64,000 bases of DNA from a virus (lineage: Duplodnaviria; Caudoviricetes): IMG/VR virus record IMGVR_UViG_3300024269_004845. The stretch is one strand, 5' to 3'. Shown piece by piece: positions 51,277 through 52,119 of this stretch. A model generated the notes under the pieces. The model did no database searches, was not told the DNA's origin, and saw only the letters and a program-made list of their open reading frames with translations. The translations under genes were made by a program, and so were the position numbers. Each line of letters begins with the position of its first letter. Positions within the stretch are counted from its first letter, which is position 1.

Positions 51277-52119
51277 ATGTCCTCAAAAGAAGTCGTACTC
51301 GTTCAACGCATAACAAAAAAACAAAATAAAGTAGATTTTGCAGTAATTGAAAATAGTATTCTTGGGAAAAAGAACAAAATAACACTAACCAGGAATGATA
51401 TGAAAATTCGTGCATCTAAAATTATTTTTAATGGTTTGCATGGATATGGGTTAGATTTTTATGGGCACACAATACTTAAAGAAGCAGGTGTTCCGTCCAA
51501 AATAATTATGGAAAAGATTGATGATGGGACTATTTTGGTTTTTATAAGCTATAGCACTGCAGATTCAAATATAAACGAATTAATTGCAGAATCTATCAAT
51601 ACTCGTTGTTTGGGCATTGATATGGGGAAAAAGAACACTTTTGCAATCGTTAATAATTTTAATAGAGACCCTATTTTGATAAAGGGTACAATGATGGCTA
51701 AGCTATATAACGAAGAGCCTGAAAAATTTTTAGAATATTTAAAAAATGCTATGAGATTTTTACAAGAATACATAGTAAAAAACAACGTAAAAGTTATCTA
51801 CATAGGAGATATGTATAAATATAAACCATATGACATAATCTTGAATCATGTTAAACGATTAAAATGTGTTAAAATCGTTGTTGTAGATGAAGCAAATACT
51901 TCTAAAGCTAGTTTCTTGGATAAAGATATTCTTTGTGCAGAAGGAGATTTTTCTGGGAAGAGATTGACCAGGAGTCAATATGTTTCAAAAGATGGCACAA
52001 TCTTTTCTGCAGATATTAATGCAGCATATAATATTTTGGTAAAAGGAAATCCTTTCGCTTTATATGATGTGCATAACCCAAAACTAAAAACGGTTGATTA
52101 TCAAATTAATGAATTATAA
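51277..52119 (+). CDS. Minimal TnpB-derived RuvC-fold protein (IS200/IS605 OrfB derivative)
   Basis: LGIDMG (D115), DEANTSKASFLD (E205), FSGKR..R..Y.S.DG...SADINAAYNI (D246); only 280 aa. Confidence 0.85.
   Translation: MSSKEVVLVQRITKKQNKVDFAVIENSILGKKNKITLTRNDMKIRASKIIFNGLHGYGLDFYGHTILKEAGVPSKIIMEKIDDGTILVFISYSTADSNINELIAESINTRCLGIDMGKKNTFAIVNNFNRDPILIKGTMMAKLYNEEPEKFLEYLKNAMRFLQEYIVKNNVKVIYIGDMYKYKPYDIILNHVKRLKCVKIVVVDEANTSKASFLDKDILCAEGDFSGKRLTRSQYVSKDGTIFSADINAAYNILVKGNPFALYDVHNPKLKTVDYQINEL

Follow-up and report, generated by a model that had tools for sequence, protein, structure and literature searches.

A 280-residue TnpB derivative and its locus

TnpB, the ancestor of Cas12, has been recruited repeatedly for new roles. 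We analyzed a 64-kb stretch of DNA (IMG/VR record IMGVR_UViG_3300024269_004845, hereafter the window) in which an intact open reading frame (ORF) encodes a 280-residue miniaturised TnpB derivative, referred to here as mini-TnpB. The gene lies between a divergent gene for a 359-residue exported Ig-like protein on its 5' side and a convergent recD2 gene, encoding an 800-residue protein, on its 3' side (Table 1). As the initial annotation of this DNA had described, no internal stop interrupts the frame and the gene has its own ribosome-binding site, AGGAG, 7 nt from the ATG. The annotation had also read a bidirectional terminator immediately after the stop codon, leaving no space for an omegaRNA, and this is confirmed: an A-run, an 11-bp stem and a T-run, common to mini-TnpB and recD2, occupy the entire 36-nt gap up to the recD2 stop. 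Its statement that tnpA and transposon ends are missing at the locus holds as well, the neighbors being the exported protein and RecD2.

Sequence comparison places the protein in the TnpB family. A BLASTP alignment with a 468-residue TnpB, interrupted by three large gaps, pairs residues 84-265 with 206-439 (28% identity), and the GIDxG, TSKASFLD, FSGKR and ADINAA blocks that had been noticed as hallmarks of Firmicutes TnpB are visible in it. When the mini-TnpB family was compared with 40 full-length relatives using hhalign, residues 104-263 matched columns 184-391 with a probability of 99.9 and an E-value of 7.5e-36; identity over the RuvC and TNB parts is approximately 26-35%. The curated family models respond weakly. 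Matches to Pfam PF07282 (Cas12f1-like TNB; E-value 9e-4, 19.8 bits against a cut-off of 26.3), to the NCBIfam guided_TnpB model NF040570 (E-value 3.8e-7, 29.7 bits against a cut-off of 100) and to phrog_506, annotated as "transposase" (E-value 5.6e-8), are all confined to the C-terminal quarter, and every TnpB family-model match is below its curated cut-off. Pfam Tex_YqgF also matches weakly, and PF01385 has no match in mini-TnpB.

The acidic residues D115, E205 and D246 are intact, as the initial annotation had claimed: an alignment of 107 sequences has D115 and D246 throughout and E205 in at least 90% of its rows, and all three are conserved within the mini-TnpB family too. What the annotation had missed is that E205 is a relocated glutamate and that Gly177, itself at least 90% conserved, stands at the canonical site. 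The full-length relatives have the consensus IG.N at the canonical RuvC-II glutamate site and a conserved glutamate just before TSKAS. In Altae-Tran et al. 2023 (PNAS, PMC10691335), the largest clade with a rearranged RuvC-II motif is described as having glycine in place of the glutamate and an alternative glutamate in a RuvX-like position. Judging from these motifs, the parent clade of mini-TnpB is of the rearranged RuvC-II type. None of the nearest full-length relatives has the C4 zinc finger, and each has either TSKAS or TSKCS; CxxC pairs are absent from mini-TnpB as well, so that its TNB insert contains no C4 zinc finger. A profile of the wider alignment, representing the parent clade, matched Cas12f and ISDra2 TnpB among PDB sequences (E-values 5e-20 to 6e-15), therefore the parent clade is bona fide TnpB; a profile built from the mini-TnpB family by itself matched no PDB sequence. 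The full-length relatives have a median length of 452 residues, and 96 of 108 reach at least 400 residues, in agreement with the length of over 400 residues originally stated for the subfamily.

Mini-TnpB belongs to a small and sharply delimited family. Its seven orthologues, all from metagenome contigs, are 280-283 residues long and share 52-91% identity with it. A search of 5.8 billion proteins returned five proteins of 280-281 residues (62-91% identity), the next matches being TnpBs of 447-469 residues (E-value 2e-8). A profile search of 1.84 billion representatives (1302 matches in total) added one more full-length member of 283 residues and four fragments; in E-value, 70 orders of magnitude separate the family from the full-length TnpBs that follow. 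The locus had no blastn match in phage genomes, and tblastn against phages and plasmids found full-length TnpBs only, which covered 55-63% of the query at no more than about 30% identity or matched short C-terminal segments at up to 42%. In GTDB genomes and IMG/VR, scanning gave distant TnpBs and no member of the family.

The genomic neighborhood of the family is conserved. The order exported protein (-), mini-TnpB (+), recD2 (-) is the same in every fetched locus (7/7), and the longer orthologous contigs also share the sigma factor, a nucleotidase-like gene and a gene for an orphan protein of 742-749 residues. Identities of mini-TnpB and RecD2 run in parallel from locus to locus (91/88, 78/80, 65/68 and 62/63%). 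The sigma factor (54%) and the upstream gene (44%) are less conserved than mini-TnpB, which is comparable in this respect to its 800-residue helicase neighbor. Nei-Gojobori counts gave pN of 0.055-0.33 against pS of 0.65-0.87, and a ratio of nonsynonymous to synonymous substitution (dN/dS) of 0.04-0.26 wherever dS is defined, the synonymous sites of the family being saturated. There is no stop or frameshift in any orthologue. Because dN/dS is low, no copy is broken, synteny is kept and identity tracks that of RecD2, we conclude that mini-TnpB is functional and belongs to the vertically inherited core genes of its element. It is also immobile, since the window contains a single copy and no second TnpB-like ORF, the gene order is the same in seven loci and its identity parallels that of recD2. 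Homologues that share the deletions described below, evolve with dN/dS below 1 and keep their place beside recD2 were thus found in the form that the initial annotation had anticipated. The adjacency to recD2 itself stands, but the functional link that the annotation had drawn from it is unsupported: the two genes are convergent, form separate transcription units and lie in a region that is syntenic as a whole. In the most diverged orthologue, a 67-residue ORF lies between mini-TnpB and the end of recD2, therefore the two are not always direct neighbors.

These data also bear on whether the gene is merely a decaying, functionless remnant of a transposon gene. Such a reading would account for a protein that is far shorter than its relatives and for the missing transposon ends, but it is refuted by the selection counts and by conservation equal to that of the neighboring helicase. 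The reading frame has also stayed intact in seven lineages whose identity falls as low as 52%, and we give the remnant reading practically no weight.

Table 1. Positions of the features described in the text; positions without a prefix refer to the window, those with an L prefix to other loci.
Feature	Position	Strand	Remarks
Coding sequence of mini-TnpB (P0001)	51277..52119	+	Intact ORF, 280 open codons
Divergent putative promoter region, AT-rich, 144 nt	51133..51276	+	Between mini-TnpB and exported Ig-like protein gene
TATAAT box	51236-51241	+	Sequence read
AGGAG ribosome-binding site	51265-51269	+	7 nt 5' of ATG
Bidirectional intrinsic terminator	52123-52157	.	Common to mini-TnpB and convergent recD2
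N-terminal beta-rich domain, residues 1-108, seven strands and one flanking helix, WED-like predicted topology	51277..51600	+	AlphaFold models
Predicted single helix, residues 14-33, between strands 1 and 2, site of ~100-residue REC in full-length TnpB	51316..51375	+	Models, ISDra2 domain map
RuvC domain and zinc-less TNB insert, residues 104-263	51586..52065	+	hhalign, model
D115 codon (RuvC-I aspartate, GIDMG)	51619..51621	+	Invariant in 107 sequences
Junction of 29-residue deletion, residues ~140 to 150, one post-RuvC-I helix gone	51694..51726	+	hhalign gap
G177 codon, canonical RuvC-II glutamate position	51805..51807	+	At least 90% conserved
Junction of ~16-residue lid-loop deletion, residues 179-184, MYKYKP	51811..51828	+	MAFFT and hhalign gaps
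E205 codon (relocated putative catalytic glutamate, DEANTSKASFLD)	51889..51891	+	At least 90% conserved; invariant in six-member family alignment
D246 codon (RuvC-III aspartate, SADINAAYNI)	52012..52014	+	Invariant in 107 sequences
Solo IS200/IS605 right end (3' part of omegaRNA)	11834-11927	+	Conserved hairpin and TCAA, no transposon gene beside it
67-residue ORF between mini-TnpB and recD2 end	L007:7417-7713, L008:2211-2414		Most diverged orthologue
P0022 (264 residues)	L014:534-1770		Directly 3' of RepL replication gene
211-residue ORF and P0159 pair	L015:5268-6576, L016:5048-6356, L017:203-1511		Probably frameshifted or split tnpB

Losses from the TnpB fold and the direction of evolution

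The initial annotation had described three clean in-frame deletions. Two of them, in the RuvC part, are borne out by hhalign, which places exactly two gaps there: 29 residues after KGTM (at about residue 140; the corresponding MAFFT gap run has a median of 27 residues) and 14+2 residues after the IGD strand. The third, at the N-terminus, is different. Gap runs in the 107-sequence alignment sum to approximately 100 residues there, but the exact points at which the REC region had been said to be jumped are unverifiable, as hhalign found no homology between residues 1-108 and the N-termini of full-length TnpBs (probability 0.2). A language-model look-up with residues 1-108 returned weak leads only, to Cpf1_PI-like/RuvC_1 and to the SSO2105 N-terminal domain cluster (score 0.90). 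Since no N-terminal sequence homology is detectable, the WED assignment depends on the structural model.

The AlphaFold model computed from the 107-row alignment has a predicted local distance difference test score (pLDDT) of 85.4 overall, with 86-98 over residues 104-280 and 54-83 in residues 1-108. It supersedes a poor model obtained from a shallow alignment of six sequences (pLDDT 48.5); residues 1-108 show the same secondary-structure elements in both. Between strands 1 and 2 the models place a lone 12-residue helix and no helical REC domain. The predicted topology agrees with the one published for WED of ISDra2 TnpB (PMC10097598). In searches with Foldseek and VIA-align, the top ranks are taken by RuvC domains of Cas12f, TnpB, Fanzor and other Cas12 proteins, with E-values down to 4.5e-9; RuvC, Tex and SPT6 YqgF-like folds rank lower, and searches of BFVD and the Atlas agree with this ranking. 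Alignments to Cas12f and TnpB reach Z-scores of 11-14 at a root-mean-square deviation (rmsd) of about 3 Å over 129-151 residues. The whole-model alignment to Cas12f covers residues 3-259, and that to ISDra2 TnpB (Z 11.1, rmsd 3.2 over 129 residues), the overlay that had been proposed as a check, shows the same RuvC fold.

The 16-residue deletion after the beta4 strand falls at what we take to be the position of the lid of Cas12. The meaning of the other losses can be read from ISDra2 TnpB, in which a four-helix REC domain (residues 13-116) is inserted between strands beta1 and beta2 of WED, the transposon-associated motif (TAM) is read by REC and WED, and the channel for the guide:target duplex is formed by REC, WED and RuvC (PMC10097598). 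In the same protein, the omegaRNA is bound at stem 1 and at its triple helix by conserved basic residues of RuvC helices alpha1 and alpha2 (PMC10097598). The 29-residue deletion maps to this pair of helices; what was lost after RuvC-I is thus not a bridge helix that holds the duplex, as the initial annotation had it, but a segment that in ISDra2 TnpB binds the omegaRNA scaffold. As judged from length and predicted topology, the REC region would be missing as well. Net charge (K+R minus D+E) is approximately +5 to +9 in four mini-TnpB members against +22 to +34 in two full-length relatives. Taken as a whole, the description of mini-TnpB as a TnpB derivative without the REC region, the post-RuvC-I helical segment and the lid loop, and with the acidic triad kept, is supported.

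In order to read the direction of change we consider a maximum-likelihood tree of the RuvC and TNB part (51 rows), rooted on zinc-finger TnpBs. The mini-TnpB family forms one clade on a long stem (support of 99 in the Shimodaira-Hasegawa-like approximate likelihood ratio test, SH-aLRT) and is nested within zinc-less full-length TnpBs through several branches with support of 95-97. The small size is therefore derived, and the protein arose by secondary reduction. Its nearest neighbors in the tree (SH-aLRT 94) are P0022, a protein of 264 residues, and three proteins of 371-416 residues. In the latter, the sister group comprising L138 (P0083, 371 residues) and L139-L141 (P0051, 416 residues), the RuvC helices and the lid are partly shortened, and the branch seems to have been shrinking stepwise.

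Two other short proteins were encountered. P0022 has a very basic N-terminus of 78 residues and a compact RuvC and TNB part with the same helical deletion as mini-TnpB; its gene, on a contig of 1.8 kb, is located directly 3' of a RepL replication gene, and it possibly represents a further TnpB derivative that became small independently, on a small plasmid. P0159, a RuvC and TNB ORF of 230 residues, was rejected as a mini form because it is likely the C-terminal half of a frameshifted full-length gene. Its start is overlapped by 20 nt by a 211-residue ORF within a one-directional, phage-like gene array, and the two, with the joint length of a full TnpB, probably represent a frameshifted or split tnpB.

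Guide RNA signals and a solo transposon end

Neither the coding sequence nor its flanks carry the signature of an omegaRNA. Suppression of synonymous sites is not seen anywhere in the mini-TnpB coding sequence. The share of identical codons at identical amino acids is 0.39-0.71 per segment of the alignment and 0.51 overall, with 0.43-0.54 in the last 80 codons; codon identity is therefore flat along the gene and gives no sign of an RNA embedded in its 3' end. Downstream of the gene, no sequence that could represent an omegaRNA or right end is conserved in the seven loci. Hairpins are present there at all seven, and they differ in sequence and keep the form of a hairpin plus T-run, as in terminators. 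The upstream regions of the seven loci have in common only promoter-like AT-rich blocks and TATAAT, and Rfam has no match in the 64-kb window.

There is, however, a solo right end of an IS200/IS605 element in the window, 39 kb from mini-TnpB (Table 1). The last 29 nt of this end have exact copies in at least 120 metagenome contigs; most of these come from human gut, and the copy often sits at the end of the contig. Of the contigs, 53 have a TnpB gene directly upstream on the same strand, and in them similarity stops immediately behind TCAA; we therefore regard positions 11834-11927 as a genuine solo right end. In one of the loci (L045) the upstream TnpB is a 436-residue zinc-less member of the parent clade, followed by the same terminal hairpin. 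The window contains one copy of the solo end, which is absent from the available parts of the orthologous loci, and solo ends without a nearby TnpB are common among the gut-metagenome matches. We considered this end as a source of guides for mini-TnpB and rejected it, as the window contains no target for the bases that follow TCAA and the end is absent from the available orthologous parts; it is treated here as a relic.

Candidate functions, related systems and the element

Small TnpB forms are already on record from archaea. According to Altae-Tran et al. 2023 (PMC10691335), the GATase-TnpBs of Sulfolobaceae are about 280 residues long, consist of a wedge and an active RuvC domain only, are non-mobile, leave no space for an RNA gene and are possibly RNA-independent nucleases, and a clade in Halobacteria comprises RuvC-only TnpBs of about 220 residues. 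The minimal TnpB is thus not unprecedented. By these descriptions, mini-TnpB resembles GATase-TnpB in its length, its WED-like part and active-type RuvC domain, its immobility and the lack of space for an RNA downstream. The two differ in that GATase-TnpB is archaeal and adjoins a glutamine amidotransferase, whereas mini-TnpB is encoded on a low-GC bacterial element, convergent with recD2, and stems from a zinc-finger-less, rearranged-RuvC-II clade; two extra, precisely bounded RuvC deletions may further set it apart from the archaeal forms. Its origin is probably independent of theirs, judging from a tree that does not include the Sulfolobaceae family. The kind is one already described from sequence in archaea, and the mini-TnpB family adds a bacterial-type form. 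In the literature searched, no paper deals with this family and none tests any TnpB composed of WED and RuvC only.

Other relatives differ more widely. The full-length "TSKASFLD" TnpBs, which resemble clade RIIr-5 of PMC10691335, have the GIDxG, IG(x)N, E(E/A)xTSKASFLD, FSGKR..R..Y and ADxNAAYNI motifs in common with mini-TnpB; unlike it, they are 340-520 residues long, possess REC, the full helical hairpin and the lid, and in some cases (L045) adjoin IS200/IS605 right ends, while mini-TnpB is non-mobile. ISDra2 TnpB (8H1J, 8EXA) has the same RuvC fold and the same order of WED, RuvC and TNB, but is a 408-residue protein with a four-helix REC, a C4 zinc finger, the glutamate in the canonical position and an omegaRNA of about 150 nt overlapping its 3' end (PMC10097598), of which mini-TnpB has none. 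TldR proteins (Wiegand et al., bioRxiv 10.1101/2023.11.30.569447) are likewise immobilised, shortened TnpB descendants fixed beside host genes; their catalytic residues are lost, which makes them nuclease-dead, and a guide RNA is retained next to them, whereas mini-TnpB keeps the catalytic residues and has no guide locus. RuvC and RuvX (YqgF) share the RNase H-like fold, the placement of the glutamate as described for RuvX in PMC10691335, and structural matches to Tex and RuvC; mini-TnpB is not a member of these families by sequence and has additional WED-like and TNB parts.

Mini-TnpB is a reduced, immobilised TnpB descendant, and on balance we favor the view that it acts as a guide-free, metal-dependent DNA nuclease. 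Its ancestor was a zinc-finger-less TnpB of the rearranged RuvC-II type that was secondarily reduced and immobilised, leaving a WED-like barrel, a zinc-less TNB insert and a compact RuvC domain in which the D-E-D site is intact, and that became fixed as a vertically inherited core gene in a family of giant plasmid-like elements of low-GC bacteria. Loss of REC would have removed the cradle of the duplex and the reader of the TAM, loss of the RuvC helices the grip on the omegaRNA scaffold; the lid loop beside the active site would have gone as well, and no RNA gene adjoins the protein's gene. The remaining protein would cleave DNA in a metal-dependent manner without a guide RNA, possibly acting on single-stranded or branched DNA during replication, recombination or transfer of the element or in conflict between elements. 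Guide independence appears the likeliest function, because the parts that handle the guide are missing, no flanking RNA is conserved and the net charge is lower. Several points weigh against this view. The N-terminal WED assignment and the exact boundaries of REC are predictions from a model whose confidence is moderate; two parts that also contact RNA and DNA in TnpB, WED and TNB, are retained; IscB and IsrB show that a bulky RNA can replace a missing REC (PMC10097598); a solo right end of a related insertion sequence lies in the same window; and the element is seen over 64 kb only.

The last points lead to the possibility that mini-TnpB is still programmable, with an omegaRNA-like RNA supplied in trans that provides both guide and scaffold and compensates for REC as the RNAs of IscB and IsrB do. 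The solo right end in the window keeps this possibility alive, as it is genuine and the same hairpin follows a parent-clade TnpB in L045; the protein retains the WED-like part, TNB and the catalytic site, and REC-less guided nucleases are known (PMC10097598). Nevertheless mini-TnpB has lost the RuvC helices to which the omegaRNA scaffold binds, the net positive charge is much lower, no non-coding DNA beside the gene is conserved in the seven loci, and the solo end, of a TnpB-free type commonplace in gut metagenomes, is absent from the available orthologous parts and has no target in the window. We consider guidance by such an RNA unlikely, and it is more doubtful still that the 280-residue protein remains programmable by a trans-acting RNA (or DNA) that replaces both REC and the lost RuvC helices. 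If it were, no smaller guided nuclease would be known, and nature would have supplied a blueprint for ultra-compact editors.

Two further roles were considered. A dimeric resolvase of Holliday junctions or branched DNA, similar to RuvC or RuvX and serving recombination and segregation of the element, would fit with the match of the fold to Deinococcus radiodurans RuvC (template modelling score 0.55, target-normalised), with the relocated glutamate, which gives a RuvX-like arrangement of the site (PMC10691335), and with the many recombination genes on the element (radA, recD2, ligA and a flap nuclease), among which no canonical RuvC or RecU was found in the approximately 40 window ORFs scanned. 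The RuvC domains of TnpB, however, act on single strands as monomers, mini-TnpB has no known dimer interface, and the adjacency to recD2 is convergent rather than operonic; a prediction of a two-copy complex scored 0.00 (controls not run) and is evidence neither way on a dimer. The resolvase role suggested in the initial annotation has nothing specific in its support, and we judge it improbable, to about the same degree as guidance in trans. A non-catalytic role as a DNA- or RNA-binding regulator or structural partner similar to TldR has a precedent in that domesticated TnpBs often turn into regulators (PMC10691335; bioRxiv 10.1101/2023.11.30.569447). It is less probable again, since the three catalytic residues and the motifs around them are conserved in the family and in the 107 relatives, and proteins of the TldR type have lost their catalytic residues and keep a guide RNA locus, for which mini-TnpB has no counterpart. 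The guide-free nuclease remains our preferred reading; the analysis shows where the protein comes from, what it has lost, that it is immobile and that it is under selection, while its activity as a nuclease, its independence of a guide and its substrate are inferred.

Known recruited TnpBs either are still RNA-guided (Cas12, TldR) or have been predicted from sequence only. Mini-TnpB provides a clean case of bacterial type: its seven orthologues have diverged, selection on it is strong, the active site is intact, three precise losses would remove the parts handling the guide, and its place is fixed in a giant plasmid-like element with many DNA-repair genes. It could reveal what a TnpB core freed from RNA does, what minimum of parts RuvC activity requires, and whether such nucleases serve giant extrachromosomal elements in their own maintenance or in conflict.

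The window has a GC content of 32.5% and contains no tRNA. Its genes include ligA, a Suv3-like helicase, ftsH, an MBOAT/DHHW pair, ogg, a flap nuclease, a pyruvate-kinase-like gene, a sigma-70 factor, recD2 and radA; housekeeping-type genes stand throughout (positions 1-64000) as scattered single units amid many orphan exported proteins. The content is consistent with the window being part of a giant plasmid-like element. In front of mini-TnpB, TATAAT at a similar distance from the start and a ribosome-binding site of the GGAG type occur in all seven orthologous loci. The assignment of TATAAT as the promoter is putative because a consensus scan gave the site no score. A T-rich block, TTTTTGTTTTATTT, lies about 14 nt 5' of TATAAT within the divergent intergenic region (positions 51133-51276) and is kept in the counterparts of several orthologous loci; it may be a promoter element for the element's own sigma factor.

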